Source: Bispira polyomma (Eukaryota). Taken from it: DNA of 64,000 bases. A model generated the notes under the pieces. The model ran no database searches, was not told the DNA's origin, and was given only the letters and a program-made list of their open reading frames with translations. A program made the position numbers and the translations under genes. Position 1 is the first letter of the stretch. The number at the start of each line of letters is the position of its first letter. Shown one piece after another: positions 2,350 to 41,274 of this stretch. The stretch spans positions 78,430,001 to 78,494,000 of the forward strand of contig OZ287750.1 of NCBI GenBank assembly GCA_965649765.1, written 5' to 3'.

Positions 2350-4745
2350 ATCAAGACATAAGCCCCTTTGCACACCTTTCTTTTATTTTAATAGACTCGA
2401 AACTTTTTGACACACCTTTGGCCTATTGAGTTTTTCATATGGGTTTTGTTTCCATTATCTAGGAATAGAATGTACCAGACTATAAAAGTCTACAAAATTA
2501 ATATAAATATTGAAAGTTTCAATTAACTCTGGTAGTCATATAGATTACCTGAGTTACTTAGTAAGTCATTGACATACATTATCCCTTTATTTATAAACGC
2601 TTGAGAACTTTTAACCAAATTTGGGTTTTTAATGAAATAGCTGTCCCAAATTGGATATATTCTGGGGTCAATATCAATCCCATTTATCTGTTTGTACTTG
2701 ATCCAAGCTGCTATTACATCCTTCCAAAAAGTGTTCTTGATTTTGTTCTTGTATTTGATTAAAGATGTAATATCTAGCTCCCAGAAAGATTTCTTATCTA
2801 ACATCAAGTTAGCTTCAAATAGAGTTTGCCAATTTCCACCATTTTCAATCAATCTCTTTACCCAAGTCAATTTCAGTGCACAGTCAAACAATCTAAGATT
2901 AGTGAGTTTCAATCCCCCTTCATGTATATCTTTTTCTAGTTGAGGTGCCGCACTTTTACTTGTGCCTTTCCAAATGAAACTGAGGAACATCTCCTTAATT
3001 TGAATTAATACATTAATTCTAGGAGTTGGTAAAGCAATCAAAAGGTATACGAGTTTTGGTATAGCCAAACTTTTATCACTGTTACTTTTCCAATGATGGA
3101 CAGTTTAAACTGTTTGTACAGGTTTAGCAATTTTTCAATTTCTGAAATTTTTTGACGAAACTTAAGTTTAATCATTTTATCCGGATTTACACTAAACTTT
3201 GTTTCTAAAAATGTAAAATTATTTACCCAGTTTAGTTTGATTTCATTGCAAATAGTTTGAGTCCTACCCTTTTCACCATCTAGCCAAACTGCCAGTGTTT
3301 TGTCCAGATTAATTTTTAAACCAGAACATTCTTCAAATTTCCTAAACACCATAATACTTTCTCTAATTGATAATTCTGAACCATCTAGTACTAAAAAGGT
3401 ATCATCAGCATATTGGCCAATTTTTTAACATTATTGTTAATCATCACACCCTTTATATTACTGTTTCTTTTTATTACCATTGCCAGAGGCTCAACTGCAA
3501 GTCTAAAAAGATAAGGACTCAGTGGATCTCCCTGCCTACAGGATCTACCTAGTTTAAAAAATTCAGTAAAATAACCATTATTTAAGACATTATTTAAGAC
3601 ACAACTACCTAGCCAAACTGCCAGTGTTTTGTCCAAATTAATTTTTAAACCAGAACATTCTTCAAATTTGCTCAACACCATAATACTTTCTCTGAGTGAA
3701 AATTCTGAACCATGTAGTACTAAAAAGGTATCATCAGCATATTAACCAATTTTTATAACATTATTGTTAATCATCACACGTTTATATTACTGTTTCTTTT
3801 TAATACCTTTGCAAGAGGTACAACTGCAAGTATAAAAGATAAGGACTCAGTGGATCTCCCTGCCTATAAGTTCTACCTAGTTTAAAAAATTCAGTAAAAT
3901 AACCATTATCTAAGACACAACTGCATGAGTTTTTGTACAGAATATTAAACCAATTTACAAATTGAGGGGCGAAATTATAAGAATTTAAAATATTTTCAAT
4001 GTATCTCCACTCGATTGAGTCAAATGCTTTCTCAAAGTCTATCAATTACAGAAGTCCAACTTGCTGGTTTTGATCAAGATATTGAATGACATCGTAGACC
4101 ATTCGAATATTTTCGCCTATGTATCTTCTTTTTTTAAATCATTTTGTTCGGTTCCTATGATATTTGGCAAGATCCTTTTTAATCTCGTAGCTAAAACACC
4201 AGATTAAAGCTTTCAATCCACGTTTCTCAAAGAAATAGGCTTATCCCCCTTTGGTAGTAGATTTATTATGCCTTGTTTCTGTGTTTGAGAAAGTTCTCCC
4301 AACAGGAAGGCTTCATTAATACTATTAAGGACATGTTCACCAATGTCTACCCCAAATATTTTGTAAAACTCAGGGTATCCATCCGTACCTGGTGATTTAC
4401 CATTTGACATTTCTTTCAGAACCTCCTTGATTTTGTGTTCGGTTATTAGACCCTTTCATGTGGCCTTGTCATTAGTTTCTAAAACTTTGATATTACCCTT
4501 TTTGCAGAACATATTTAGGCAATCTTAGAAGTTCGGCGAATTTTTGTAAAATCTCTTTAGCTCATCTATGATTAACTTTTGATCCATCAACAGATTCTGT
4601 CCTGTGTTAACTCTGTTAACTATTATTTCATATAGTTTCATTTTTTTAAATTGCAGAAATAATTCGGTTATCTCGTTATATTCATACAAATCCGCCTTCG
4701 CACGTAGGAAAATACCTCTTATAGTGTCTTATCTCAACTTTTGAA
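2350..4745 (-). mobile_element. Decayed L1/Tx1-clade LINE ORF2 (RT region) with an internal ~330 bp tandem duplication
   Basis: Motifs KSPGTDG, IDFEKAFDSIEW, RQGDPLSPYLF, SGLKINLDKT, GGLKL; many stops and frameshifts; 3281-3609 repeats at 3610-3925. Confidence 0.9.
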
Positions 4746-5010: not shown

Positions 5011-5797
5011 TTAAATGTCTTTGGAAGTAATCATTTGTTTTTTTTTATCAAGGGAGTTACATTTGCGGTCTTCAAACAGGTGGGGAAAAACACCATCCCA
5101 AAGAGTAAAATTTAATATCTTGGTTATGGGTGTGACTAGAATGTCAAGGCATTGATTTAGAATAACTACGGGGATAGGATCTAATTCCCAAGATATAATA
5201 GTAGAGGATTTCATGAGTTTTAGAACATCCTGCTCTGACAGTGTACTGAAATAGAACAGGTTAGAAACGTTATTTCCTTGGGCTGGAGGACTGAAGTGAT
5301 ACATCGTTAAAAACTGTCACAAATGTTGCTGATTTTATCAATAAAATTTTTTTTTAATTTTTAAGCTAAAAACGTAAGGCATTTATGGGGAGAACTTCTC
5401 CGATGTTCGATGTAGAATTTTCTTTTTAGAGGCCCATAACCTTTTGGGATTGTCCTGATTTTTACTGATGACAGAGTCGTAATGTTTCTTTTTGGCACCA
5501 GATATTAGACTGTTAAAATTATTTGTGGCGATAGAGTAACAGTTTCTGACAAAGGAGGATTTAGTACGACGCCATTGACGCTAAAGTTGGCGTTTGCATT
5601 TTTTGGCCTCTGTAATGGTGGCGCTGGTCCATTCATTGGGGTTTGTTGGGGGAAGGGTTTTAGATACCCAAGGCGCATGTTTATTATGGATGGTAGACTG
5701 GCAGTGATTGTATTGTAAGCTGAAGATTTCATGTTCAATGAGATTTGATTCCAGGATGTCTTCTCTAAATTTGTTTATATTGATTTTTCTGATATTT
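5011..5797 (-). mobile_element. Older L2 LINE copy, downstream half (continues from 8573-9800)
   Basis: Reverse complement aligns with 6305-7110 (KNIRKININKFRED, LDPIPVVILNQCLDILVTPIT). Confidence 0.85.
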
Positions 5798-5798
5798 T

Positions 5799-6779
5799 TT
5801 GCACAAACGCGGGGGAGGAGTTGGCATTTTTGTGAAAAATACCCTTTCCTGTGAAATTCTAAAAAACCAATCCTACTCGTCTTTCGAACACATTTCATGC
5901 AAAATTTCAAATGGTTATCATTCATTCCTAGTTTCCTCCTTTTACAGACCACCCATCCCTTCTTTAACTAGTTTTACTCAAGAGTTTTCAGCATTCCGTG
6001 AGACCCTTAACCTTCTCCCATTTGAAGCTATCATCCTTGGTGATTTCAACATCAAGCTCGACATAGAAAATACTACAACAAAAGATTTCAACACACTCCT
6101 CGACACTTTTGGATTCTCACAGTTTATCTCTATTTCAACCCACATCCACAATCACATACTCGATCTGGTAATCGCAAGACCAAATTCAAATCTCATCAGA
6201 GAATCATGGGTAACTGATGGGATTTCAGATCACCTGGCAACCTTCGCCTATTTAAATTTACCAATACCTGCCTCGCATAAACCTTGTGTCATAAAATACA
6301 GAAACATCAGAAAAATTAATATAAACAAATTCAGAGACGATATCCTGGAAACTAATCTCATCAAACATCCATGCAAAAATGCTGAAAGCCTTAGCTTACA
6401 ATACAATCACTGCCTTTCTACTGTCCTTGATAAACATGCGCCATGGGTATCAAAAACCCTTCCCCCAACTAACAACCATGAATGGACCAATGCCGCCATT
6501 ACAGAAGCCAAAAGACGCAAACACCAACTCGAGCATCAATGGCGACGCACAAAATCCTCCTTAGACAGAAGCCGTTACCGTATCGCCACAAATAATTACA
6601 ACAGGCTAATAACTGATGCCAAAAAGCAACACTACGACTCCATCATCACCGAAAATCAGGATAATCCCAAAAGGTTATGGGCCTCCATAAACAAAATTCT
6701 ACATCGAACATCAGAGAAGGTTCTCCCCATAAACCACTGTCTTACTTTTTTAGCAGAAAAATTTGGAAATTTTTTATAG
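5799..6779 (+). CDS. LINE ORF2 N-part: apurinic-like endonuclease (APE) and linker
   Basis: RGGGVGIF, FYRPP, ILGDFN, HILDLV, ISDH motifs. Confidence 0.9.
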   Translation: MHKRGGGVGIFVKNTLSCEILKNQSYSSFEHISCKISNGYHSFLVSSFYRPPIPSLTSFTQEFSAFRETLNLLPFEAIILGDFNIKLDIENTTTKDFNTLLDTFGFSQFISISTHIHNHILDLVIARPNSNLIRESWVTDGISDHLATFAYLNLPIPASHKPCVIKYRNIRKININKFRDDILETNLIKHPCKNAESLSLQYNHCLSTVLDKHAPWVSKTLPPTNNHEWTNAAITEAKRRKHQLEHQWRRTKSSLDRSRYRIATNNYNRLITDAKKQHYDSIITENQDNPKRLWASINKILHRTSEKVLPINHCLTFLAEKFGNFL

Positions 6780-8428
6780 AAAAAATCAGCAACATTCGTG
6801 ACGCTTTCCCAACAATACATCACTTCAATCCTCCAGCCCCAGGATATAAGGTTTGTAACCTGTGTCATTTTAGTACACTGTCAGAGCTTGAAGTTCTGAA
6901 ACTCATCAAATCCTCTACTATTAAATCTTGTGACTTAGGTCCCATCCCAGCAGTTATGCTGAGTCAATGTCTTGACATTCTTGTCACACCCATAACAAAT
7001 GTATTAAATTTTTCTCTTCGGGATGGTGTTTTTCCCACCTGTTTCAAGACGGCAAATGTAACTCCCTTGATTAAAAAACAAGGGCTTGATAAAAACCATC
7101 TCAAAAACTACAGACCGGTGTCAAACCTTAGCTTCATCTCAAAAGTCATCGAGAAAGCTGTAGCTAAACAAATTTCTGACCACCTTAATAGACAAAACAT
7201 TGAAAATCGCCACCAGTCAGCTTATAGAAAATTTCACTCTACAGAAAGTGCCCTTTTTTCCATCAGCAATGATATCAATCTTGCACTGGACCGCAACGAC
7301 ACAGTGGCCCTCACCCTTCTGGATCTCTCAGCTGCATTCGACACTATTGATCATGTTCTGCTCTGCGACACTCTCAAGCAGTGGTTCGGTATAAATGGCA
7401 GTGTCCTTAAATGGATCAGATCCTACCTTACTCTTAGGGCACAAAGAATTAAACTAGATGATCACCTATCATCTTCCATAAAACTTCCATATGGAGTACC
7501 CCAGGGATCCGTCCTTGGTCCTCTACTTTTCACCCTTTATACACATCCTCTCAGCACTGTCATCAATAAACACAATATAAAACACCACATGTATGCAGAC
7601 GACACTCAAGTGTATTTCTCCCTCAATCCACAAAACGCAGATACTAACATAAACCTACTTGCAGACTGTCTGTCTGATGTCCGAGCATGGATGAACTACT
7701 CCAAACTAAAGCTTAACCCTGACAAAACAGAATTCATCCTCATAGGAAACAAGAAAAACAGTGAACTCCTAAAATCTTTGTTTCCCATCTCCCTGCTGGG
7801 AAAAGACATACTACCTTCCGAAAATGATAAAAACCTGGGTGTCACTTTTGATTCAGCTTTTTCGTTCGATACTCATGTTGCCAACATCTGTCGCTCCTGC
7901 TATTACCACATACGCGACATCAAAAGAATCAGCAACCACTTGTCCATGGACACAGCGATAATTGTGGCAAATGCCCTTGTAAGTAGCCGCCCCGACTACT
8001 GCAATTCTCTCTTGTACGAAGCAAATAAGTCAAACATTGAAAAGCTCCAGTCCATCCAAAACTACCTATGTAGGGTCAATTTTCGCCTGGGTTGTCGCAC
8101 AGACGTTACTCCTTACCTCAAAAAATTACACTGGTTGCCCATTAAATTTCGAATTTTGTTTAAAATTCACATTACCACTTTTAAGGCTGTAATCACTCAA
8201 CAGCCACCCTACCTTGCCTCCCTTCTTTCCTTTAGTAACCGCAAGAGAGGCAACAGACTCTCTGTCACTTCGGTCAGACCAATCAGAAAGGCGGGTTTCA
8301 GAGCGTTCTCCACCGCAGCTCCACGGTTATGGAACAGTCTCCCAGTTGACCTCAGATCAGTTGACACACTTATCGGTTTTAGGAAAAAGCTTAAAACCTA
8401 TCTTTTTAATCTTGCCTACCCACCTTAG
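6677..8428 (+). CDS. LINE ORF2 C-part: reverse transcriptase (L2 clade); true frame begins about 6775
   Basis: NYRPVSNL, LLDLSAAFDTIDH, GVPQGSVLGPLLF, YADDTQ, LNPDKTE, LHWLP, LKTYLF...AYPP end. Confidence 0.95.
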   Translation: MGLHKQNSTSNIREGSPHKPLSYFFSRKIWKFFIEKISNIRDAFPTIHHFNPPAPGYKVCNLCHFSTLSELEVLKLIKSSTIKSCDLGPIPAVMLSQCLDILVTPITNVLNFSLRDGVFPTCFKTANVTPLIKKQGLDKNHLKNYRPVSNLSFISKVIEKAVAKQISDHLNRQNIENRHQSAYRKFHSTESALFSISNDINLALDRNDTVALTLLDLSAAFDTIDHVLLCDTLKQWFGINGSVLKWIRSYLTLRAQRIKLDDHLSSSIKLPYGVPQGSVLGPLLFTLYTHPLSTVINKHNIKHHMYADDTQVYFSLNPQNADTNINLLADCLSDVRAWMNYSKLKLNPDKTEFILIGNKKNSELLKSLFPISLLGKDILPSENDKNLGVTFDSAFSFDTHVANICRSCYYHIRDIKRISNHLSMDTAIIVANALVSSRPDYCNSLLYEANKSNIEKLQSIQNYLCRVNFRLGCRTDVTPYLKKLHWLPIKFRILFKIHITTFKAVITQQPPYLASLLSFSNRKRGNRLSVTSVRPIRKAGFRAFSTAAPRLWNSLPVDLRSVDTLIGFRKKLKTYLFNLAYPP

Positions 8429-10140: not shown

Positions 10141-10338
10141 CAGCCGAATGAAATGAGTTTGAGGTCAAGGTCATAAGATGGTAGTTTGACCTTGTGTGTG
10201 AGATTTTGAAAGGTAAGAGGTCAGATGCAGTTTGGGATATTTATTTATAAATCTTTAGTTTATAAATGTTTAGCTTCTATGTACAACTATACAGAAAATT
10301 TTAGATAAGAACTAAAATTTTAACATGCCAAAGCCAAA

Positions 10339-11318
10339 CTAAAATTTGGAAGAGACAATAGAAGCAAAGGTGGTAGGGATGATAGAAGAAGCATGAGAGG
10401 TATTTTTTAAGTAAGTCCACACTGCATCTGACTTCCAGCACCCATGTTTTTGTATGTGCTGGAGTTTTATGTTGGAATTGAAGGCTAAGGAGGCGCCAGA
10501 GCGCCTGATACAATGAAATGAATGGCCTTCAGTGGGAATGTTTAGCTGATTAAGGATAAGTTTTAATATAGATCTTAACTTGTTGTCAGTTAAGCAAAGA
10601 CCTGTGTTTGAAGGATTTGCTAAAAGAGGATCCATGGGTCCAAGTGGATATTTTTGAAAAAGGGACTTTGCAGCCCTAACAGGACACAGCCAAGAATTGC
10701 TGAGTGAAGGTAATTATATGATATCAGGCGAAGTCCTAGCCTGATTTGTTTTGGACCATTTTATAATTAAGTGAATACCAGGAGGAGCAAATAAGATATC
10801 TGACCTTGTGAGATGTTTAGTGGGGTCAAAGGGGGTACCTGAAGAAGGGGTCAAATTTGATATTCTTAAAAAACCAAAAAATGCAAACAGAAAAGCTGTC
10901 CTAAATAACTCGGGATACTGAAGTTGCTCACATGCCTGAGAAATGTGTAAGAGCTGAGTTAAGTCAAAAACTCCTTTGACCTTGGGTGTATACTTGGAAG
11001 TGATCTCTAAAGATCTGGTGTATAAAGGTAATCTGGGATCATAAAGCCCAGTGTTCTGAATGTTCAGCACTTTGGTTTTGTGTCTTAAAGCTGAGAGGTA
11101 ATTTGTGACGACTTTGTGAGAAATTCCTGATTGAGTCAAGAATTCAAAGAAAGCTATGATACTGTTGAAACTAAAAGTCTGTTGTAAGTCATAATAAATT
11201 GTGAAACTCAGAAACAATCAAAACTGGTTGTCATACTGTTTCTGTGTTCTTGGTCTGTGACTCTGTTCTAAACGTCTAAAGGTGTCTTGTACCAGTGAAG
11301 TGGCAGGTAAGGGAGTGT
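10339..11318 (-). pseudogene. Tyrosine recombinase (YR) of copy 1
   Basis: FFGFLRISNL, KWSKTNQ, HSFHCIRRSGA, HGCWKSDAVWTY give the R-K-HxxR-H/W-Y catalytic set; premature stops near 11219 and 10714. Confidence 0.92.
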
Positions 11319-11324
11319 CTGAAA

Positions 11325-14069
11325 TTATATATAACTGTCAAGGGTAAATAAGTCAATTGGGACGTCATACAAGATGAAGTTGCCCATAATAATATTTTTT
11401 ACACAATCAGCATGATGCATTGATTCATACCACCGAGATAACGCATCTGCGATTATATTGTCTTTACCTGGAATATGACTGATATTTAAGTCAATATTTT
11501 TGGTAGCACAGATTTGCCATATATTTCAGAGGCATAGCTCGAGATAATCATCTCTGGTTTTAGAAGACTGCACAAGAGCCACCACAGCCATGTTGTCAGA
11601 TTGTATCTTAATTTTTTTGTTTTCCCATTCATGGCCACATAGCTTTAAAGCTATTAAAACACTGACCATTTCAAAATGTACAATGGAAAAATTGTCAGTC
11701 ATGAAGGAAGGGAGAACAACCTTGAACACTTTGTCATCTGAAATGCCCCCTATGCCTGATAAGCAGGCGTCAACCTGTAATAAAATGTCATTATCCTGGT
11801 TTAAGTATCTGTACTTGCAAGTACCATTGAACTGCTTTAGAAAAAGCAGGAACCACTGTAAGTCTTTATGAAATTCATCGTTTAGAATGATAATTCTACG
11901 ACTTGTAGACTAACGTAGTAAAGCAAGCATTCTGTTCATAAAAATCCGAGAAGGTTTGATACAGCGATGTATATACAGTAGCTTGCCGGGTAACGACTGG
12001 TACTTCTGTTTCCGAACTTTCCCCAGGTATTTGAACTCCAGGCAAGTATTGTGAATTGAATTTAATTTTTCCTCATTTATACTGAGGGTTTCTTGTTGGA
12101 TGTCTATAACAATGCCCATACATGTGACCCGCTTGCTGGGAGGTACTAACTTACTGGGGTTAATAGGAAGACCTAAGTCTGTTAGTATTTGTTGTAAAGT
12201 TTCGTAGGCTAAGGTGGCCTTATCTTCATGTTCTATGAGCAAAAAATCATCTATATAATTCATAACTGTGAAACCTTTTTGTTTCATGATGTAAGTGACA
12301 CAATCTGAGGTCATCATAAAAGCAGCAGTACCATGAGTGAGACCAAAAGTCAGACTTAAGTCAATAAAACACTGGTCTTTCCATATATAACCCAGCTTCA
12401 AACAGTCATAAGGATCTATTTTTATGTTCCTAAATGCGTGCGCAACGTCCACCTTTGCTAAGGTTGCCTTAGGTCCTATGTCCATAATTTTGTGAGTTAT
12501 TTGGTCAATAGTGGGTAATTTCAAAGTGAAGTCGATTATGTCGTACTTTGACTTAATGGTATAGTCATTTACAGAGTAGCCTGCTGGGTGAGAAAGATTT
12601 AATATAAGACGACGTTTGTCAGTGTCTTTAGGTACAGTCAAAAGTGGAGAGCAGTGTATATCAGGGTGAAGGTCAGAAGTAGCTGAGCCCACTAGGGTGC
12701 CTCGTTCGAGTTCTGTGACAAAATATCTGTCCACAGCTTCTGGAAAAGTTTTTGCTGAGTAATGGTTCTTAACATTTTTGACTGTCAGTCTATCTCTATC
12801 ATACAATGAAATTGGAAATCCAAATTCAATATATTGTAATATGATGTTGTCAGGATAATCTGTCAGGTATTTCTTCCAATTTTCCACTTTGAGAGTACTC
12901 TTAAGCGGTATTCTGGCTTGTTTATAGTTGGGAAATCCAGAGTTCTTAACAATGTCTGCAATCTCAATGAGTTTGTCATAAGAATTTATAAGAACTTCTT
13001 GTCTGTCTGGACCCACAAATTTAAAACTGTTCTGTCTGTGTGGTATGAAACCACAAGTTCTGTCTCTAGAAATAAGACAGGATTAATGTGTGACATTGTC
13101 CACATTAGTGTCTGATGATTGTAGTGATAAGATGTCATTAATCATGACGTCATCATTATGCACAAATGTAGGTTTTTGAATAATAGAATCTTCATTGTGC
13201 ACTAATATAGGTTTTTGTATCATAGAAGTTTCATTATGCACTAATGTAGGTTTCTGAATCATAGAAGTATCATTGTGCAGTAATATAGGTTTTTGAATCC
13301 TAGAATTTTCATTATGCACTAATGTAAGTTTTTGAATCATAGACGTTTCATTATGCACTAATATAGGTTTTTGACTCATAACCTTGTGATTATGCACTAG
13401 TGCATTACCTTGATTAATTTGATGCTCAAGGGGTAAGTGGGCTTGATGGTTACAATCTGAATTGGTCTGGTGTTGAAAATTTGATTTGCAAATCTTGTCA
13501 ATGATATCTGTATAATAGAAAGTTTGTCCAAATTGTTTGTGTGTATGTGCCACATTATGTTTTGCACGGTTTTTTGACTGATTTGGTTGAGTATGATGTA
13601 GTGTTGTGGCACAAGTGGTGTTCACATAGGATAATGGCCATATGTGATCCAGTGTATAGGGAGTTTGTTGTAAGTACCACATATTTAGGCCATAAGTCCA
13701 TACACCTGAAATACATGACTCATCATGACAAACGATATAGCAATAAGTTAGACAATCAGACTTAAAATTACTGGTGCTAATATAAACGTCTACTGTATGA
13801 AAGACAGCTGATGGTTTTTGACCATAATTATCACACTGAACAGAGTTCATAACGTTCAATTTAACAGGCAATTTTTGCCTGCATAAGTCATTAAGGGAAA
13901 CACTGCCAGGTAAAACTTGAGATGTCTTACTGGCATCACTATAACTCAATTGGGTAATTGACTCATTGAGTTGACAACTAAAATTATTTATGAAATCATT
14001 CTTAAAACTGTTTTTCTTACAAATTTGCTTATTAGTACCACTGGTTAAATCACAACTTCCTGTCAGCAC
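11325..14069 (-). pseudogene. DIRS-type pol: long N-terminal extension + reverse transcriptase + RNase H
   Basis: ORFs 13083-14069 and 11910-13016 are in the same frame split by one TAA; RLILNLS, YIDDFL, VDACLSGIGG, SDNMAVV, IADALSRW. Confidence 0.9.
13150..13400 (-). repeat. 42-bp (14-aa) coding tandem repeat, ~6 copies, in the pol N-terminal extension
   Basis: IQKP(I/T)LVHNETSM repeated in translation. Confidence 0.9.
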
Positions 14070-14141
14070 ACAATGGTTAATAACGACATCAGAAGTGGAC
14101 TTAAGGTGAATAGCTGTGGTGTCTGCTGGCAGTCCGCGTCC

Positions 14142-15362
14142 CTATTGAGGGGCGTTCGCGGGCGCATTTGGGCGGCCGTGTAACTTGAAGCATTTTGACT
14201 CGGGATGTGGGTTCATTCTCTTGTTGAGTCGGAAACAGTTGGCACAGATATGTCGAAATGTAATGTTATTGCCCTCATGATCTTTCTGGTGTTGGCAGTA
14301 ATTTTTTTGGTAACGCCTGCAAGGCATTTCATCTTTGTTTGAAGATGAAGCAGAAAATAAACTGGTTGAAGGTGTGGTAGTACTGGATATGAGGGCTTGA
14401 GAATAAGCAAGCCGATTCAGATTCCATTTTGTGTCGTTGATCCAACTCAAACGACCCTCTTCAATATCATGCATATTACTGGCATATGCTCCACGAGCAA
14501 TCTCCCAAGAGATGTTGGAGGCATCTTTGAGGGTGTCTGCTAGTTGGGAGAGCATGGCTCGTGAAATATCAGGATTCTTAACCTCAAGAATATTTTGGAT
14601 CTGGCCAGCAGCGAACTGTGAGACTGACAATTCATCAAAAGATACACGCTTTTTGCTAACACCAGATAAACAGGCCTCGTTCAGCCACCGCTTCATGGGG
14701 TCAGATACACATAATTCAGAGGTATTATAGCGCCCAGATTTTCGCTTGGTAGTGAGCTTACCTTGAATGCTCTCATCTGTGGCCCAGGATTCATATCTCG
14801 CTAGTCGTTTGGAGACCTCGTTCTGTATGAGGGACAACTGCTTCAGCACTTCGGGAGTCGGGAGAATGGTATCTTTGAACGCACGTTGAGTGGCTTCGTG
14901 ATCATACTGGCTCTGTGAACTAGTGAGGTGACGTGAGGGAGAATCTGTAGTGAGAGGATGAGTTGCGAACGCGCTGGCAGTGTGATCTCTCTGACTGTCA
15001 TGAAGTCCAAGTGAAGTGTGAGGATCTTGGGGTGCGTTATGAGGCGACACACGGTTGGTCTCCATCTTTCCAAATTTGAGATCTGAGACGTCTTCTTGTA
15101 GCTTGGAGACTGTAGATAACAGGGTTTCCATCATATTCTGCTGTGTGGTGTATGCCTCACAATAGAATTTTTCACTGCTAACTTGGCCACTTGCTTCAGA
15201 AACACTGCTTTGATCATCACTATCAAAGCTAGGCTGGAGAAGACCATCATCTCTTGTGTCTGTGGTTCGTTTGCAGCGATTTCCTACTGGTCGTGTGTGA
15301 AAGATTTCACATCTAGTACATAAGACTGTTTCAATAGAGTTTGTTTTTTTTCCTCTGCCCAT
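14142..15362 (-). CDS. Gag-like protein (N-terminal CX2CX3HX7C, C-terminal CCCH/CCHC-type fingers)
   Basis: Open frame from MGRGKK (ATG at 15362); CTRCEIFHTRPVGNRC; CRRYQKNYCQHQKDH...HICANC...HPESKC. Confidence 0.85.
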   Translation of the reverse strand: MGRGKKTNSIETVLCTRCEIFHTRPVGNRCKRTTDTRDDGLLQPSFDSDDQSSVSEASGQVSSEKFYCEAYTTQQNMMETLLSTVSKLQEDVSDLKFGKMETNRVSPHNAPQDPHTSLGLHDSQRDHTASAFATHPLTTDSPSRHLTSSQSQYDHEATQRAFKDTILPTPEVLKQLSLIQNEVSKRLARYESWATDESIQGKLTTKRKSGRYNTSELCVSDPMKRWLNEACLSGVSKKRVSFDELSVSQFAAGQIQNILEVKNPDISRAMLSQLADTLKDASNISWEIARGAYASNMHDIEEGRLSWINDTKWNLNRLAYSQALISSTTTPSTSLFSASSSNKDEMPCRRYQKNYCQHQKDHEGNNITFRHICANCFRLNKRMNPHPESKCFKLHGRPNAPANAPQ

Positions 15363-15769
15363 TTTTAAGTAATATCCACACAAATTAGCTTAAAAGATGC
15401 ACAATATTATCCTCTGTGTGAAACTTGTTGTAATTTTGTAAAATAATAAACATTTAAGCAGGCAATTGGATTTTTAGTGATAATGTATAAAAATTTCCAA
15501 TATGGCCGCTGATAGCTTAAGATTTTTGATGTTGTTAGTTTGATTTCTGACTTAATAATGAGCTTATCATAGAAAGGGCGCCAAAGCGCTGGGGAGAGTA
15601 AGAGAGATTTGTCTTCTGACTTATCAGTGAGAGTACAAGAAAGGCGGGAAATAGAGAGTGGAGGTGTTATCTGAATGCAGCGTTGGGGTGAGGAGTGACT
15701 GTGATAAGCAAGTAGTTTAAAAATAGAAGTACAGTAAAGTATAGCATTTCCGCGGCTGACTAGCCATGC

Positions 15770-15910
15770 TACTTCGTGGCAGTGATGAAGACATTCACCT
15801 CTATCTATGGCCTGCAACAGGTCATTACATATGCGAAGGATGGCTGTTCCTGTGCTGTGACATTTCCTGTAGGCAGGTTGCTTGGGCTCAAAGTTAACCA
15901 CAGAGTCACT
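15770..15910 (-). mobile_element. Short L2/CR1 RT fragment at the junction of YR elements 1 and 2
   Basis: QPAYRKCHSTGTAILRICNDLLQAIDRGE matches RT motif QSAYRKFHSTESAL..ND. Confidence 0.75.
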
Positions 15911-20884: not shown

Positions 20885-21355
20885 CAGTTTCCCCAAGTCG
20901 ATTAAAAAGGTTGATCGAACTGATCTAGTCTTTGGACAATTTATGTGGAAGTGGAGACAAAAGAACACGAGTCTGTTACATAATTGGGTATTTTATTAAA
21001 AACATAAAATAAAATATATATACATATCTAACACACAACATTTAAGGTCACCTTAACACTTGGTGAACCACCTTACTATGCTGTTAAGGTGACCTTAAAT
21101 GCTATATACTACTACTACTTAAACTTAAGGTTGAAGTCAACCTCAATTAGAGGTGACCTTAATGTTGCCTTAGGGTTGCCTTATCTTGAGTCTAAGGTTA
21201 CCTTGAGCATACCTTACTGCTTTTGAGGTGACCCCAACCCCAAGTAATTTTCATTTACATTCTACTTTTTCTATTACTGTACATACTACTACTATGTGCC
21301 CTACTATTGTTGTGTGTATGTACATATATATATATATGTAAAGTTAAAAGAGGCC
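20885..21355 (-). repeat. Split direct repeat B1 (AATAAA on minus near 20992-20997)
   Basis: Near-identical to 19635-20157 except (TA)n length. Confidence 0.92.
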
Positions 21356-21384
21356 AAACGCAAATTGTAGGGTGTATTTATGTT

Positions 21385-22362
21385 TTACTTTTTAGCTAGG
21401 TGTTTTGTGAAGGTAGCTGCGACTGAACCTGCTGCTTTTGGTGTTTTCACTAAATACCTCCATATGGCATCAGAACGCCAGCCCCCATGTACCTTGATAT
21501 TTGCAGGTCCACGTTGTGGTCGATGGCCCAGGAGGCCCCTGACCTTCTGAGAGCATGGAACCCATACTCAGCTGGAGGGAGTTTTAACTTGAGCAATAGT
21601 GAAGTCAGGACCTTCCTCACCTGATACGTTGGGATAACTGTTACCCTACCTTGAGTTTTAAATTAAAATAATGGTATAGGTTTTGAGGGCTTCTCAGGGA
21701 CTATGTTGATTAGAGCCTTTACTGGGCAGAGACTGGAATTTGGAAGAGCTGGAACCTGGACTACCTGCAATTGATCTGAAACTTGCATATTTTTTGCGCA
21801 TTTTGTCAAAATGTGTGCGCCTGGGGACCCCAAATCACATCGTTCTGGGTTAGAAAACGTGAAGCTTGAAATTGACCTGCTGTGTGAGGGACCAAGGTAG
21901 CCAGCCTAAAAAACCCAAAGGAGAAAAAAGCCTAGGAGTATAATAGCTTTGTAATGTTGAGCCCCTGGGAGGCCCTGAATTAATTCTACTAGCTGCTGCA
22001 GCTTTTGGGGAGTGAAAACTCCTTTGATTTTGTATTTGAGGGGAGCATTGCACGACACTGATTTCAGCACTAATGCAACTTTTTTATGTTGTAATGCTAC
22101 TGTGGGTAAGTCATACATTTGAAAGAAATGTTTAAGCACTGAGGTATAACCAAGGAGTGTACCTGCTCTGTGACCCTGTTGTGCTAAAAATTCTAGGAAC
22201 AAAAGTATAGACTTTAATTCAGTGGAAGAGCTAATCTGTAGGTGTGTTAAGAAGGCTAAGTACAGTCTAAATTTCCCTGGTAAGCTGCTGAGGTGCGAGG
22301 ACAAAATCCCGAAGCCACCCGCGCTTTCACATCTTGAAGTAAGCCTCCTACGAGTGGATTAC
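21385..22362 (-). pseudogene. Tyrosine recombinase of copy 3
   Basis: N-terminal core-binding region (FLEFLAQQG), LCPV, HALRRSGASWA, HGGWRSDAI in broken frames. Confidence 0.88.
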
Positions 22363-22371
22363 CTACAATGA

Positions 22372-24700
22372 TTAAATATCATAATTAGGATTTAACCACT
22401 ACGGTTTCACTTCATGCCAAGTGCACGTTTTTAAATATTTAACTTCAGTTTTGTCTGTGTTCTCATAACGCTCCCATCTTGACAGCATATCAGCAAAAGT
22501 GTTATTTATGCCCCTAACGTGCTCTACTAAAATCTCAATGTTATATTTGGCTTGTAATAACCATAGAGTTCTCGCACACACATTCAGAAAAAAAATCCCT
22601 GCACTTGAACCTGTTCAATATGTGAACAACCGCCAAATTGTCGCAGTTTACACAAATTGTTTTGTTGGCCCATCTGTGACCCCATACTTGGAATGCCACA
22701 ATGACGTGGACCATCTCGAAATGTACTATTGTTAGCATGCCCTTATAATTTTGGGGAATGTTGACTTTATAAATCTATCTTTCCCAGTATGCCTTTAAAC
22801 TATTAACTGACGCGCCAATAAATACGTGGTTTGTTATTCCCCCGTTTGGTGCATTTCTGTGACCCCATTGTAATCCTGAAGGAACTCGCAAAACCAATTA
22901 ATATCTTTGTGGAAACCTGCACTAAGACCTATTGTTACATTGGGGGGCGTCCCCCTTAGGACACTGAGAATTCTATTCACAAACAGTCTTGCCGGTTTGA
23001 CACATCTGTGTATAAATAAAAGCTTTCCTAACAATTGCTGAAGACCCCTGCGTGTGCCTCTGCTTTTGTTTTGCCATTTTAGACATAAGTTTTTTACTTC
23101 TAATAACTTCTTTTCTGGTATTGTTAAGCGACCAGTGGGCGAATCCACCTTGTCTTGGTTATCTGGGAGTCCTAATTTCTGTATCAGATTACGTAATGTA
23201 GTGAATGCGATGTTAGTCTTTCCCAGAGGCGTAACCCCGATGCAGTCATCGAGGTACGAACAAACCCAGTAATTGTAGCTATGCATGAGGTATGTAATGC
23301 CATCCGTTGCCATCTGACATGCGCATGCCCCCGAGGCTAGGTCGAAGGGGATGCTAACGTCGACGTACAGTTCTTTGTTCCAAGTTAAACCCAAGACTGA
23401 GTAATCTAACGGGTCTGTTCTTAAGTTTCTGTAAGCCCTTTGCAAGTCAATTTTGTATAATAAACAGTTTGGGCTTAGAGAGGCTATTTTTTCAACTATA
23501 TTATCTATTGTTGGATATCTGAGCTGAAATTCAATCTCATCAAAAGTGTTACGGGGAATACATGAATTGACACTACATCCGTGTGGCCAAGAAAGGTCCA
23601 CAATTATACGTCTGGTCCCGTTTGGTTTTGGCCTAGACATTAAGGGGGATACATGTAACTTTTCAAAATGACTGTTTCTCATTGGCCCCACCATGGCCTT
23701 ATGCCCAACCTCTGTTGCAAAGTATTCATCTACATCTTTTGGGAACCTTAATGCTGAGGGGTGATTTTCCACATTTGTATTATACGTGACGCTAGCATAA
23801 TCCAAAGACAAAGGAAAACCATACTGAAGGTAGTCACACAACACAGCCATATCATATTCACCCAAATATGCACGCCAAACCCTGAGGTGACCCTTGCCCC
23901 TTTGTAGTTGGGTACCCCTGTGGCCTTTGTTAAACTATAAGCCTCCCTCACCCATTGTATCATGTCATTGTTTTGCAATTCCTGTGTTTGGGTATTAGTC
24001 AAGGCTTTTTGTACCTGACAAAGATTTATGGGCACAAAGCCCCTTAGCCATTCTTTCAATTTTTCCCCCTTATTGGGCATGAGGCCTTCCTTTTCATTCT
24101 CAGAACAATGGGTAAAATTAGGGCTTTTACTGGAATGCTCTGAATGAAACCTTTGTACTTCACATCCAAACTGACACTGGCTTATGGCTGCGCTAACTTT
24201 GAAAGATAGATTGGCTGTGCTGTCGTGGCTAGAATTCATTGTTGTACTGATTTCCCTAATTGAAATTGACACTGTAAAATTAGCATAACTTATGAAACTC
24301 TCTAATTGGGGTGTGGCCCCTACATGTGTGACAAACGTAAAATTTTGCCCTATTGTCGACTCGTCGCCGACCTCAGTATCACCTGTTAGACCATGCTCTC
24401 CCTGTGACACATTATATGTACTATTAACATTTTGGGCCTTAGACCTGTCATGGTAATTATTTGTAGGTGTGTTGACACTACTGCAACCACTTTGGTTACC
24501 TAATTCACTATTGACATGGTTATTGTTTCTACTATTGGCATTTCGCCTAACACTGCTTGCACTGTTTGGGGTGCTATCCCTTTTCCATTCAGTGGCCCCC
24601 TTTTGTGCTATTTCTAGCCCAGAAGGGGGTTGGTCCTCCCCCCCAGTTCCCATTTCTTCTCGATACATAAATTTTGGAATTTTTACACACCAATAACAAA
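22372..24700 (-). pseudogene. pol (N-extension, RT, RNase H) of copy 3
   Basis: YLQYGFPL, RRIIVDLSWP, KIDLQRAYR, YLDDCI, CDNLAVV, ADMLSRW. Confidence 0.9.
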
Positions 24701-24876
24701 TACAATGGCCTAGGTGTTTGCTATTCCAAAATATACTTTCTTGAGCTAACCTAGCATTGACCCCATACTACTTTTGTTGAATATGAATTTTTTGTTTAGA
24801 AATTTCGGTAGAACTGGGATTGACTTCACTGTTGTTAAACCCTCTTTTCACCCCTATCACTACTGCTGTGGTTTTT

Positions 24877-26058
24877 TTAATTTGCATCGCTCATCTTACG
24901 ATTACATTTACTTTCTGGGTGGTCAAAGTTCTTGTGCACTCCCCTGTAACAAAACCCACAAGAGTGTTTTTGCATTTTCCCCCCTCCAAAGTGATCTGAA
25001 TCGAATTTACATACGCCTTTTGAATATTTTTGACATACTGTCACGTTTTCCTGATTTGCCTGATCCTTATCTTTACCTTGGTTATTATAATAGCCCGAGC
25101 TTGAGCTGTAACCACCAGAAGTTGTACTTTTCCACACCCTTTGGGTAAATCGCTGCCTGACACAATCAACTTCCCCCGGATTGTCCCAGCTCAAATTTCC
25201 CCTTTCACTTTCTGTAAACACTGCTGCATGAGCCCGTTTGGCAGTCGGCCATTATAAATCAATGGCGTCCTGCATCAAAACATATTGATATTGAAGCATG
25301 TTTTTCCTAATTTCTTCTTCTGTTTCTTGTAATACACATTTTGAAAACCCTTGAACCCACTGGCACAATGTAAGCTCTTCATATGTTGGCATTTTCATTT
25401 GATCATTTGACATACAGTTCTCGTGTGGCCATGCCACTGCCACCTTAACTTTCTGATCCCCAATTCTAAGTCTGCCTGATTTTATAGATTTTTTGTTAAA
25501 AAAATACCTGAAATGTCCTCCTTTGATGTCTCTTGGTACTGTCTTATTCTACGGTCAACTTCGTCCTGGATTACCGAGTCCCCCCTCAAGAAGTCCAGTG
25601 TGGACAACTTGACTGCCTTCACAGCCCGGCGTTGGTCGTCTGCGCTAACACGTTGGTCCCTGTGAGCTTTTGGCGAGCTGTGCGCTGACGGGCGCGTGGA
25701 AATGGATAGGTCACTACCATTTCTGTCTTCCTGTCGACTGACTCTCTCCTCCAACTGTGTAACCTTATTAGGCACTAGATCGAGTTTAGCCAAAACGTCT
25801 ACGTTTCCCACACGCTTCTTTCCCGGTGACTTCGTCTTCTTCTGTCCTGATGTCCCCTGAATTTCTGAGTCGTCTCCCATTGTTGTGTTAAAGGTAACTT
25901 GCTAAAAAATTCCTGCTGCCTCCGTTGTATTCTGCTGATGATAGCGTGTGATCCGTTGTTGCTCTGTTACAGGCCTCCCCAACCGGTGGTCTGTGACTGA
26001 TGTTGCATTTCGAGCATCGCTCCTGCGTGCTGCTCCTGGTATTGTGTTTCGGCCCCAT
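24877..26058 (-). pseudogene. Gag of copy 3 (frameshifted)
   Basis: MGPKHN...CSKCNISHRPPVG at start; WPHENC; CQKYSKGVCKFDSDH...HSCGFC...HPESKC. Confidence 0.85.
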
Positions 26059-26220
26059 CAGAACTTATAAACTTGTTCTTGCTGCTTTCCGTTTTAATAT
26101 TTATTATAATGTTTTTCACTAAAAATATGTAAACGGCCACTAAAACTATGTTGTACTAAAAACCAAGAACCAAAAACAGTGTGTATAATATATTTCATAG
26201 ACTATATGTTCTGAGCCTTC

Positions 26221-26403
26221 TAAAAATGTGTTGTTTCCTTCTTGCTAACTAATTCTTGAATGAGGTGGTGTTCCCCACCTGCCCTCTGTATTTAACAATT
26301 TTGGCGGGAAATCTTGGCGTCTAATGTGGGTGCTAATGAGTGTTATATATATGAACCTGCCAGGGAAAACTGACATCTGATGCTTAGCCATAACGGCCTC
26401 ATT
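26221..26403 (-). repeat. Split direct repeat A1 (5' end; TATA-like TATATATAA on minus at ~26343-26351)
   Basis: Near-identical to 20695-20877. Confidence 0.9.
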
Positions 26404-32308: not shown

Positions 32309-33083
32309 ACACCAATTTACCATGAACGTGAGTGGTCCAACCAGATGTGGCAAAACATTTTTCATCCCAAAACTCCTTGAAAATTGTAAATTACAACCAC
32401 GTCCTGAGAGAATTCTATACCTATACAACAGCCACTGTATGACGTATTACAGCAACGAGTAGAACAAAGGATTTGTCAGCGATATTCCACAGGATTTGGA
32501 TCTAGATTCATTTTTTAACGTGGATAAAAATAACCTTATTATATTGGATGATATGATGGATCAAGCAAGCAGTGACAAAGCTGTATCTGACCTCTTTACA
32601 GAAGGGTCTCATCACAGAAATTTGAGTGTCATTAATTTGACCCAGTCACTTTTCCCCAAAGGTAAAAATAGTGCAACTCAAAGAAGGAATACTCAATACC
32701 TAATCATATTCAAATCACCAATGTGTCAAGATCAAGTTAGAGTACTGGGACGGTACATGTTCCCCCGGGATTTCAACAGCTTCATGAAAGTACACTCTGA
32801 GGGAACAAAGCAGCCTTACGGGTATCTTATCATTGATGGAAAGATACAAACCCCTACATCTGACCGACTCATCACAAATATTATGCCAAAAGAGACCTGC
32901 ACAAAAGCATTTGCTCTAAATTGTAACCATAGCAACAGCAAAATATCTGATATTAAAAGACAAGTAGGTCATGGTACAAATGATGGCTATGGAGATATAC
33001 CAATGTCCATTGCACCACCGCCGCCGGGTATACCCAATAAAGCAATCAAGCGGATCGGGTATAAAAAAGAGGTCAGGAAATGA
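32309..33083 (+). pseudogene. Polinton packaging ATPase (A32/FtsK-HerA-like), frameshifted
   Basis: Walker A VSGPTRCGKT at ~32328-32357; Walker B LIILDDMM; LFTEGSHHRNLSVINLTQSLF; PYGYLIID. Confidence 0.9.
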
Positions 33084-33657
33084 AAAAGACTATTTCACAC
33101 ATCTACAGCAATCAGTGCACCTCAATATGGATATACACGAGGCAACACCGTGTAAATACTGTGGCATAGTGTTTCAGGATACAGACAGTTTACAGGATTA
33201 TCTTGTTAATAGCTGTGTATGTGCCACAAAGAAGGAGACTGCATATAAATCTTCTGCACTTCTAGAAGACGATTGTACTGAGCCAGTATCGAAGAAAGAA
33301 AAGCTGTCGCATGCTATCGAAGAAGATATTTCTGAAAATCCTGTCTTCAATAGACTTTACAAACAATCTAAAGATGCGTACAATGACAAATGGAACCAAA
33401 CTCGTAAAGAGTATATCGAAGATGGGACAGAAGAACGAGCAGCTGAAATGGAAGCACATAGACAGCTACTGTCAGATTACAAAAAACAATTTTTTAAAGA
33501 GTGCAAAATGTTTCCAAAGTCATTGTATGACCTGCAAAATAGTACTGTGCATCAGTTGATTTGGGATGAAATCCAAGACTTATCATTGATGCAGAAAGAC
33601 AAAGACAAAGTGATTTGCTGGGTTTTGGCAAAAAATAAATATATATCTCTTACTTAG
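33080..33657 (+). CDS. Unknown Polinton-associated protein with a degenerate zinc-finger-like CxxC, truncated by the right TIR
   Basis: PCKYCGIVFQDTDSLQDYL followed by a charged helical region. Confidence 0.45.
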
Positions 33658-37501: not shown

Positions 37502-40500
37502 ATGTTAGACAGTAAATTAAGGGTATTATCAGCAAACGTTCAAGGACTTAGAAATGAAAGAAAACAATTAGATGTTTTAAACTATCTTAAAGATTTTAAA
37601 GCACAAATAACTTGTTTACAAGACACACATTGGACAGAAAATAACATAAAATTAATAAAACAAAATTGGGATGATAATTGTGTTATTAATGGGGATAAAA
37701 CCAATGCTAGAGGTGTGGCAATATTACTTTGCAAACACTAAGATCACACTATTAATAAAACAGTAACTGACAAAAATGGCAATTTGCTTGTACTTGACTT
37801 GATAGTTAATGGGTTAAGTATACTCTTAGTAAACATATATTCAGCTAACCAAGATTACCCAGCTTTTTATATCGACTTAGAAAGAACTTTATTGAGCTCC
37901 ACTTGTGATTATATTATTTTATGTGGGGATTTAAACATGTACTAAGATAAAGATCTGGACTCGTGTAATTATATTCATATTAGTAATCCAAAATCAAGAA
38001 CAAAACTAAAGGCCATTATGGAAAACTTCAAATTAATCGATATTTTCAGACACTATTTCCCAAACACAAAAAGGTACACTTGGAGAAGACGAAACCCCCT
38101 AAAGCAGGCAAGGTTGGACTTCTTTCTGGTTTCTAGCACATTATTTGATATGATTTATTCCAGTAACATCTTTTCCGGTAATCAATCAGATCACTCTATC
38201 ATAGAGATTACAATCAGCATATGCAAATTTGAAAGAGGAAAGGGTTTATGGAAATTTATATCTTTTGAAAGATCAACAGTACCTACACCAAATAAATAAA
38301 TTGATTGATTCAGAATATTTGACTTACATTGTACCAGTCTATAATTTAGAGAATCTGAAGAATATTCCAGAGGATTTATTGGCATTAACAATCAACTATG
38401 AATTATATGTAGAAGTCCTTTTGTTGAAAATAAGAGGAGAGACTTATAAGTACTATACTAAAGTAAAACGAGTAAATAAAATTCGAGAAGTAGAATTGAA
38501 AGAAGAGCTAAAAATTCTTGAAGAACAGAATCAAACTGTCAATACATTAAACATAATCCATGATAAAAAACAATCAATTGGAAAAAATACGAAACCTGAA
38601 TCTTCAAGGTCAACTGATCAGATCAAAGGTCAAATGGTTAAATAAGGGTGAAAAGCCGACCGAATATTTTTGTAACTTGGAAAAATTCAATTACATGGAA
38701 AAAAACTAATACAAAAATATCAATTAGTGATGGTACAGAAATAACAGATCAGGATGAAATTTATACATGATTTCTATGCCAATCTTTTTGCTGAAAAACA
38801 GAGAATTGTGACTTGAAATTTGTACCAAACTTAAATTTCAAACCCCTGAAAGAAATAGAATCAGAAAAATTGAAAGGGCCAATTACAAAAAACAAGTTAA
38901 GTAAGGCACTAAAACACATGAACCATTTTAAAACACCCGGCATAGATGGTTTTCCTGCCAAATTTTTCAAAGTTTTTTGGTTTAGATTTAAGTTCATTAT
39001 TACCAAAGCTGTCAATAATTGGTATGAAAAAGGCCTTATGTCTGAAACTATGCGTACCTGTATTATCACTTGTCTTCGTAAAGGTGATAAGCCACATCAA
39101 TATTTGAAAAATTGGAGACCTCTATAGATGCTTTCAGTTGTATACAAAATGACTTCTGCAACCATAGCCAATATGATAAAACCCTTGCTACCTAAGATAA
39201 TTTCGGAAAGTCAGAATGTGTTTATACAGGGTAGATTTATTAGGGACAGCACAAGGCTTGTTTTTGATGTTATACATTTGGCTGAAGTAAACAATTTAGA
39301 AGGACTATTAGTGCTGATCGATTTCAAAAAAGCCTTTGACAGTATATCATGCAGCTTTATCAAAAAGGTGTTAAAGTACTTTAAATTTGGAAAGAGCATT
39401 TTTAACTGGGTAAAATTGTTTAATACTGAAATAAAGGCAGCTATAACCCAATGTGGTCGATTGTCTGAATTTTTCTCAGTTGGAAGAGGATGCCGTCAAG
39501 GAGATCCGTTATCCCCTTACCTCTTTATCCTATTTGAAAGTGATAGTAATATGACAGGAATATCCTATCATGGAGAAGAATTTAAAATTAGTCAGTTTGC
39601 TGATGACACCACTCTTTTTCTTAATGAAACCCAGACATCCTGTCAGGCAGCACTCAATACTTTAGAAATTTTGGTTCAGTTTCAGGTCTCTATATGAATA
39701 CAATCAAAACTATAGTAATCTGGATTGGAAGAAAAAAATTCTCCAAAGATAAATTCAGAGGAAGTCTAAAATTAGATTGGGGGAACACTTGTTTCACTCT
39801 GTTGGGATTAATTTTTGACATAAATGTGAATGACATGATTCCTCTAAATTTTGACAAAAGCATCTGTCAGATAGAAGATACATTACAATAATGGTCAAAA
39901 AGAAAACTAACACCAACAGGAAAAATCACAATTGTAAAAACATTGTCACTTTCTAAACTAAACCATCTTTTCCAAAGTTTGCCTACGCCATCACTGAAAT
40001 ACATCAATAAATTAAAGGCCATATCCTACTCTTTTATTTGGGATGGCAAGCCTGACAAGATTAGCAGAGATAAAATAAACCAATCATATTTTGATGGGCG
40101 TTTAAAAATGCTAAATCTTGACAATTGTATAGATGCTCGTAAAACAACATGGATACGACGTTTGATAATTGGCCATAAATCTGCACGGGGCAAGTTATTC
40201 ATAAAAACAGTTTCACCTGTTCAAAGTCTTGCTTTAATGGGCTCACAGTGGTGCAACAAAATTGCAAATAGAATTAGTAATGACTTCTGGACTACAGTAT
40301 TAAAAGCATGGGCAAAGGTTATTGACAAAATTGTGCCCAGGACAAATCTTGATCTGCTTTCTTCACCATTGTGGTACAATAAACACATATCTATTGAAGA
40401 ATTATTTATACCACAGTGGTACAAGGCTGGCATTAAATTTGTATGTGATATTGTTAATGAAAATGGACAAATACTGCAAATGGAATATATAAAACGAAAA

Positions 40501-41274
40501 TTTGGCATGACTACAGTAAATCATTTTGACTACTATCGCACAAGAGGACTTCTAAGTAAGTTTATATATGACCATAAAGAAAATAGTTCAATGTTCATTC
40601 AGCTATATCCATTCTACTCATTTCATCTAAAAGTACTGTCAAGGTTAAGCAAGGGATCTCAGGACATGTACATAGCACTATGCCAGGTTCAAAAGATGCA
40701 ACATTTGAAAGACAAATGGCATAGAGAACTAGCCCTTGAAATAAATGATGGACTGTGGAAGACAATTTTTAAGGCATGCTTTAGAACAGTGTCAGACAAT
40801 GTTCTCATCTGGTTTTAATATAAAGTTATTCATAGAATCTTAGTTACCACAAAGTTGAGATATCAAATGAAACTAGAAAATACCGACAAATGTCGACTGT
40901 GTGATAAAAGTGAAGAATCACTGACCCACCAATTTTTTCATTGTGAGATAACCCAAAAATTTTTGGATGAATTAATTGCGTGGATATTTGAAAACACCAA
41001 AATTAAATTTCAAATTACACCAGATAAATTTATCTTGGGATACACAACCTTAGATCACAACTTCATTACCTTCAATACAATCTCTATTTCTGCAAAATAC
41101 TACATTTTTCGATGCGCATACTTTGTGCGAACCCCCAATCTAAATGAATACAAAACCAGACTGATTACTATTTATACAGAAGTAGAAATTTTGGCTAAAC
41201 TTAACTTTCAATCAGAATTATTTGATAACATATGGAGCAAATGGAGACCCCTACTCAATGAAATACAAATTTAA
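37502..41274 (+). mobile_element. L1/Tx1-clade LINE, complete ORF2 span (APE-RT-C-terminal zinc finger), disabled; no ORF1 seen
   Basis: SANVQGLR, CLQDTH, ARGVAIL, ARLDFFL, SDHS, KNWRPL, IDFKKAFD, GCRQGDPLSPYLF, QFADDTT, CRLC...HQFFHC. Confidence 0.93.

Follow-up and report, generated by a model that had tools for sequence, protein, structure and literature searches.

How is an enzyme produced whose reading frame has no start codon? The question is raised by a decayed Ngaro-type tyrosine-recombinase (YR) retrotransposon at 15791–10141 on the minus strand of a 64,000-nt stretch of the Bispira polyomma genome (contig OZ287750.1, positions 78,430,001–78,494,000; the whole stretch is hereafter called the window). 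Its genes lie on one strand in the order gag, reverse transcriptase (RT)/RNase H and YR, and the YR frame has no upstream ATG and is closed upstream by TGA 11340–11338, as a preliminary description of this DNA had reported. That description proposed a spliced message joining the front half of Gag to YR. Our sequence analysis supports the proposal, and YR is very probably made by splicing, fused to the Gag front half, and not by a ribosomal frameshift. The evidence consists of an intron-less genomic copy with the exact junction, a phase-1 donor and acceptor across divergent families, a fixed NGT-A at the donor, and the lack of a conserved frameshift route.

The coordinates given in the preliminary description for the donor CAAG/GTAAGC and the acceptor TTTCAG (slashes mark exon boundaries), both in phase 1 and joining Gag to the YR frame, all hold in the window. 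From the gag ATG at 15362, exon 1 would comprise 601 nt, i.e., 200 codons plus 1 nt; the pol stop TAA (11327–11325) is followed by TTTCAG/ACAC with AG at 11320–11319, where exon 2 resumes the YR frame. The predicted intron has U2-type traits, namely GT..AG ends, a pyrimidine/T-rich 3' end and a kept frame. A second AG (11336–11335, phase 0) lies 16 nt upstream of the proposed one. The parts of the predicted spliced message are:

14762–15362, minus strand: coding part of exon 1, Gag 1–200 (zinc finger, predicted coiled coil, linker, conserved helix pair)
14756–14765, minus strand: predicted splice donor, phase 1, CAAG/GTAAGC, GT at 14761–14760
11319–14761, minus strand: predicted intron of 3443 nt, covering the second half of Gag, C-terminal Cys/His region included, and the whole of pol (RT, RNase H)
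11319–11356, minus strand: acceptor region with two TTGAC motifs resembling branch points (35 and 20 nt from the end; branch role putative), the pol stop and TTTCAG
10339–11318, minus strand: coding part of exon 2, YR frame, 325 codons after the split codon; relatives carry PF00589/PF13495/PF02899
22363–25507, minus strand: same predicted intron in a second copy, TCAG/GTATTT ... TTGTAG/GT, GT at 25507–25506, AG at 22364–22363

The window copy has two premature stops in the YR frame (11220–11218 and 10716–10714) and three in pol (13085, 11912, 11528); it is therefore dead and cannot make the fusion itself. A DNA search of the 1.04-Gb host genome (29 of 1469 candidates scored) found many full-length copies at 93–97%, of which 20 were fetched and aligned with the window copy as a family set of 21 sequences. 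The donor and acceptor hexamers are both present in all 21, and we did not accept this conservation as evidence because the copies (93–97% alike) are too similar. In single copies (L016, L021, L031, L073) the donor is weakened or the acceptor has been lost or altered, which neutral decay after insertion would give.

The predicted junction was found in genomic DNA. Copy L066 (G000:C1:95301800-95311300 of the host genome), fetched because the open frame of its YR match was exceptionally long (426 aa), has Gag 1–200 directly joined to YR without RT. Its junction reads CAAG/ACAC with no filler letters, so that the predicted intron is missing to the base and the proposed AG, not the one 16 nt upstream, is used. 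Compared with the window, it matches 15791–14762 and 11320–10141 and nothing between, and both ends of its junction are the sites predicted before L066 came to light. The joined sequence forms a single frame from ATG 6935 to a stop at codon 524, with exon 1 in phase 1 and one premature stop at codon 97. L066 starts at the terminal repeat A1 and ends at B, as do 9 of 21 unspliced copies, and has no poly(A). Both of its halves are nearest to the same subfamily (97–98.6%), which argues against a chimera of distant copies, and it has its own flanks and private differences of 1.4–2.7%. As a control for deletions, GT..AG ends were found in none of six deletions of at least 40 nt in the 20 family copies, and none of the 15 joints listed, of 32 in three contig runs, runs GT..AG. 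Taken from its sequence, L066 is most likely a reverse-transcribed spliced RNA that integrated or recombined into a copy. Long open frames in other YR loci were also considered as spliced copies and rejected, being cases of pol and YR in the same frame.

Across families, we compared loci of the host genome (YR identity to the window family 27–97%) and 33 metagenome contigs of unknown hosts, eight of them with a Gag anchor. As the donor we took whichever site scored highest within 120 nt upstream of the KSxR motif, the start of the Gag C-half. It was in phase 1 at 85 of 89 loci, and the other four had stops in that stretch. When YR sequences were clustered at 70%, phase 1 was found in 20/20 clusters with an anchor (L053 is a duplicate Gag; 15 clusters had no anchor), and when Gag sequences were clustered at 70%, 15 of 16 clusters were in phase 1 by majority, the sixteenth being tied between a phase-1 copy and a broken one. 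Of 60 control windows placed farther along Gag, 23 gave phase 1, with a mean donor score of 0.6 vs 4.3 at the proposed site.

The codon split by the donor was expected to be a Gly codon fixed as GGT followed by A. The following A was present in all 16 Gag clusters; GGT was present in 15 of them, the other having CGT (Arg), and this Arg-for-Gly family keeps GTAAGT at the donor. By comparison, GGT followed by A occurred at 17 of 140 other Gly codons. Free synonymous variation at the donor, which the preliminary description named as a point that would count against the splice, was not seen: NGT-A is kept while the next residue differs between clusters, being K, N, I or R, and some members of one large cluster have T or M there. 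As judged from these codons, the constraint at the donor acts on nucleotides, not on protein.

For the acceptor, 48 nt at the start of YR were searched for a YAG preceded by 12 nt of which seven or more are pyrimidines; two of the 35 YR clusters lacked this region. With metagenome loci included, such a YAG was found in phase 1 in 30 of 33 YR clusters, in phase 0 in four and in phase 2 in six, while a phase-1 YAG of any kind was present in 33/33. A phase-1 acceptor was also seen by eye in 20 additional copies.

The published expectation for Ngaro is a different one, namely a probable frameshift for YR, whereas in the window family the evidence favours a splice that yields a Gag(N)–YR fusion. 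According to Poulter and Butler 2015, as quoted in excerpts of a 2026 paper (PMC13003380), YR is probably translated by programmed frameshifts in the overlap. A programmed −1 frameshift from the pol end, giving Gag-Pol-YR, would agree with the −1 position of YR relative to pol, seen in 12 of 25 clusters and, within the window's own cluster, in 33 of 35 copies, and with a short overlap of the pol and YR open frames (mostly 4–100 nt). However, the YR frame is 0 in nine and +1 in four of the 25 clusters, among which single-copy clusters may carry mutations that alter the frame (cluster L061 is at 0 in 4/4 copies), and several of the −1 clusters have no overlap. Only two of the 25 clusters have a canonical slippery heptamer in the overlap, and few of their copies carry it. 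In contrast, at the gag/pol joint, used as a positive control, A AAA AAC stands 7–10 nt before the stop in 9 of 25 open reading frames (ORFs), while in some other families, the window's among them, the stop is in frame and pol continues open beyond it. Recoding signals are thus visible where these elements use them. According to PMC3783388, every fungal Ngaro group includes YR frames shifted relative to pol as well as YR in the frame of pol; this does not suit a −1 frameshift and fits a splice, which would leave the frame of YR independent of that of pol. A frameshift also leaves L066 unexplained, and we consider it highly improbable as the source of YR. At the gag end, TAG 14144–14142 is in frame with pol in 21/21 family sequences and is likely read through; other families have A AAA AAC and a GC hairpin (−1 frameshift).

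According to the preliminary description, intact copies should offer neither an in-frame ATG nor a frameshift signal for YR. The part on frameshifting stood, given the frame geometry above; the part on ATG stood with exceptions. The YR frame (319 codons examined) is free of stops in 6 of 21 family copies. In four of these the first Met is residue 228, after the catalytic R151, and the remaining two each have a Met of their own, at 53 and at 184. No Met before the catalytic Arg is common to the copies.

A second alternative accepts the splice as real and makes it secondary, a regulatory or defective subgenomic RNA, with working YR coming from a non-AUG start, an internal promoter or reinitiation. 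Several points favour it or otherwise weigh against splicing as the source of YR. A Met lies upstream of the acceptor in the open YR frame in 8 of 33 clusters and right after the acceptor in two, so that these families could start YR without splicing. The junction has been seen once, in assembled DNA, as L066 is the sole intron-less copy found; no others were present among 40 scored DNA matches (320 candidates) or 150 scored protein matches (of 3807) to the L066 junction. Of 57 odd-length stretches chosen from 150 Gag matches, 56 were unspliced and one was unclear, and among further loci 20/20 full ones carry RT and 20/20 stretches upstream of YR carry RNase H. Intron-less copies of distant families could escape these searches. 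The 15 joints listed, of 32 in the contig runs, do not include that of L066, but these runs are of unknown kind, with flat coverage across exon and intron, and favour neither side. Among the best 150 of 291 hits from 1.84 billion representatives, no protein contains both halves, most such proteins being called without splicing. Some donors are weak (scores 1.2–2.6 in the group of the window's second copy), and the donor matrix was not fitted to the host. The clusters share ancestry (six remain at 45%), so that their counts are not independent trials and no p value is given. On the other side, a by-product needs no phase 1 at both ends across families of 25–45% identity, and most clusters have fewer than 15 open codons and no Met upstream of the acceptor. 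A secondary role for the splice is very unlikely.

It is extremely unlikely that protein constraint (Gly-Lys in Gag, an AT-rich pol end) produced the sites incidentally and that L066 is a chance deletion or assembly error: two letters (AG) are common to both ends of its joint, internal deletions are frequent in the family and L066 is known from the assembly, but both ends match the predicted sites to the base while other deletions lack splice ends, its flanks and private differences speak against misassembly, and the donor is kept while the residue after it varies and, in one family, Arg replaces Gly.

The proposed splicing mechanism would work as follows. RNA would be spliced from the mid-gag phase-1 donor to the acceptor after the pol stop and translated as a ~525-aa fusion of Gag 1–200 and the whole YR. 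The unspliced RNA would serve as the genome and give Gag and also Gag-Pol, the latter through readthrough of the stop in some families and −1 frameshifting in others. The spliced RNA would keep both terminal repeats, which may allow occasional reverse transcription and germ-line fixation, as in L066. We infer that the spliceosome makes the junction and that the splice is the only route to YR.

Among the parts of Gag that the fusion would retain are:

15273–15320, minus strand: N-terminal CX2CX3HX7C finger, Gag 15–30; 26 of 37 non-redundant Gag ORFs have the motif, and several of the 11 without it are 5'-truncated frames
14790–14864, minus strand: conserved helix pair directly before the donor, Gag 167–191, with near-invariant P, L, Q and R columns; helices 125–130 and 132–151 in the model of a relative

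From the alignment and the model of the relative's Gag (mean pLDDT 78, pTM 0.45), the order of Gag is zinc finger, long helix (51–79), disordered linker, helix pair (125–151), donor, helical domain and C-terminal Cys/His region. As modelled, the splice cuts at a domain edge, with the donor at a helix end before the Gag C-terminal domain, and exon 2 holds the whole SAM-like YR domain. The Gag fold had no PDB match, and Atlas and Pfam were uninformative; these comparisons lend no support to a capsid-like label for the removed Gag half. No fused Gag–YR protein was present among 120 listed of 539 hits by length (16 inspected); the long leaders of 20 inspected YR protein hits were RNase H, the Gag C-half or untranslated sequence. 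Relatives were not found among viral contigs.

As for the role of the retained Gag half, our guess, held tentatively, is that it ties YR to the Gag particle by Gag–Gag contacts. That it steers YR to target DNA or chromatin is an unlikely alternative guess, and that it mainly lends a start codon is more doubtful still. In Cafeteria Ngaros, ORF1 appears to decide target choice (PMC8547959).

The assignment to Ngaro rests on layout and domains. Besides the spliced parts, the element comprises:

15520–15791, minus strand: terminal repeat A1, with which the element begins at its 5' end; 96.7% to A2, an internal repeat, in copy L006; copies part from their flanks at 15791
14142–15362, minus strand: gag ORF, 406 aa, with a TAG end in frame with pol; aligns with 32 other Gag ORFs
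11325–14141, minus strand: pol frame with a long N-terminal region, RVT_1 and an RNase H-like region
10141–10331, minus strand: B1 repeat, 3' end of the window copy, without A2-B2; 98.4% to B2 of L006

Split direct repeats of the form A1...B1 A2 B2 were recovered by self-match in copies L006, L016, L134 and L135, and A2 is reached in 12 of 21 family sequences, the window copy stopping at B1. Such an exact end at B1, without A2-B2, occurs in 9 of 21 copies; full copies have a tandem-repeat spacer between A2 and B2. Pfam found RVT_1 and a weak RNase H on the pol pieces, with the pol stop 6 nt before exon 2, and no methyltransferase domain after RNase H, a trait of PAT-like and DIRS1-like elements. 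No inverted pair bounds the element; its repeats are direct, and the inverted repeats and internal complementary region of DIRS1-like elements were not seen. Neither a retroviral env gene nor a DDE integrase ORF was found in the element. The YR catalytic residues R151, H268, R271 and Y302 are invariant or nearly so in 30 homologues. PF02899 was above the cut-off on a relative (L079), while the window family's own YR had no Pfam match above it, and the YR profile had no match to solved structures at E 0.001. The published Ngaro layout is A1-[gag, RT/RH, YR]-B1A2B2 (RH, RNase H), without methyltransferase and with YR last (PMC8547959 section 11; parts of PMC4157794), and the Ngaro superfamily (order DIRS) shares it with the window family; by this structural definition the element is a Ngaro. 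DIRS1-like and PAT-like elements have Gag, RT/RH and YR in common with the window family but differ by a methyltransferase domain and, in the DIRS1-like group, by inverted repeats that come with an internal complementary region (excerpts of PMC4157794 and PMC9210276); the window family has neither.

Within the pol frame, six 39-nt tandem units lie at 13113–13424, in the long N-terminal part before RT, and their number differs among copies. First-look candidates for YR queries in the host genome numbered 13,000–14,000, which are not copy numbers and indicate a very large radiation of related elements. The window's second Ngaro-type copy (21200–26300) is divergent and more decayed, with relatives at ~72% DNA identity. 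Other ORFs of the window resemble different mobile elements: those at 5793–8428, 39128–41274 and 2523–3104 look like pieces of non-LTR (long terminal repeat) retrotransposon endonuclease/RT, the one at 48252–48761 is similar to a Harbinger-type transposase fragment, and the region 32463–33657, bounded by a 143-nt inverted repeat (31792–31934/33739–33881), has an ORF similar to a Polinton/Maverick-type packaging ATPase, and a neighbour.

Retroviruses and LTR retrotransposons use one promoter for an unspliced genome RNA and a spliced message for a downstream or shortened ORF, as with env, foamy-virus pol and copia gag. To our knowledge, integrase is not made as a half-Gag fusion in any of these three cases. 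The closest working analogue, with no kinship claimed, is the SD' RNA of murine leukemia virus (MLV), in which, as in the window family, a donor inside gag is joined to an acceptor at the pol end. Excerpts of PMC10496198 describe this RNA (SDARE; P50, P60) as fusing N-terminal Gag to integrase sequence and as being packaged, reverse-transcribed and integrated. P50, however, contains no more of a DDE integrase than its C-terminal 116 aa and has an accessory role, integrase itself coming from Gag-Pol, whereas in the window family the whole recombinase would depend on the splice. No report of a Gag–YR splice was found in the literature covered, including parts of PMC9341512, PMC7192593, PMC4157794, PMC6681497, PMC8547959, PMC13003380, PMC9210276 and PMC3783388; a remark in earlier Ngaro papers or Repbase notes is possible.

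The expression of YR without a start codon is an open question in YR retrotransposons, and the frameshift guess of 2015 was still quoted in 2026, as excerpts of PMC13003380 show. The splice proposed here would make the integration enzyme a Gag(N)–YR fusion, and annotated YR ORFs would be N-terminally incomplete. It predicts a precise junction that can be searched for in existing RNA data of fish, amphibians and invertebrates. With some doubt, we suggest that the mid-gag splice may be ancestral and superfamily-wide in Ngaro, the Gag half loading YR into the particle and helping to set the insertion site. If this is true, such a loading or targeting module would give a mechanism for the link between ORF1 and target choice in Ngaro elements (PMC8547959).

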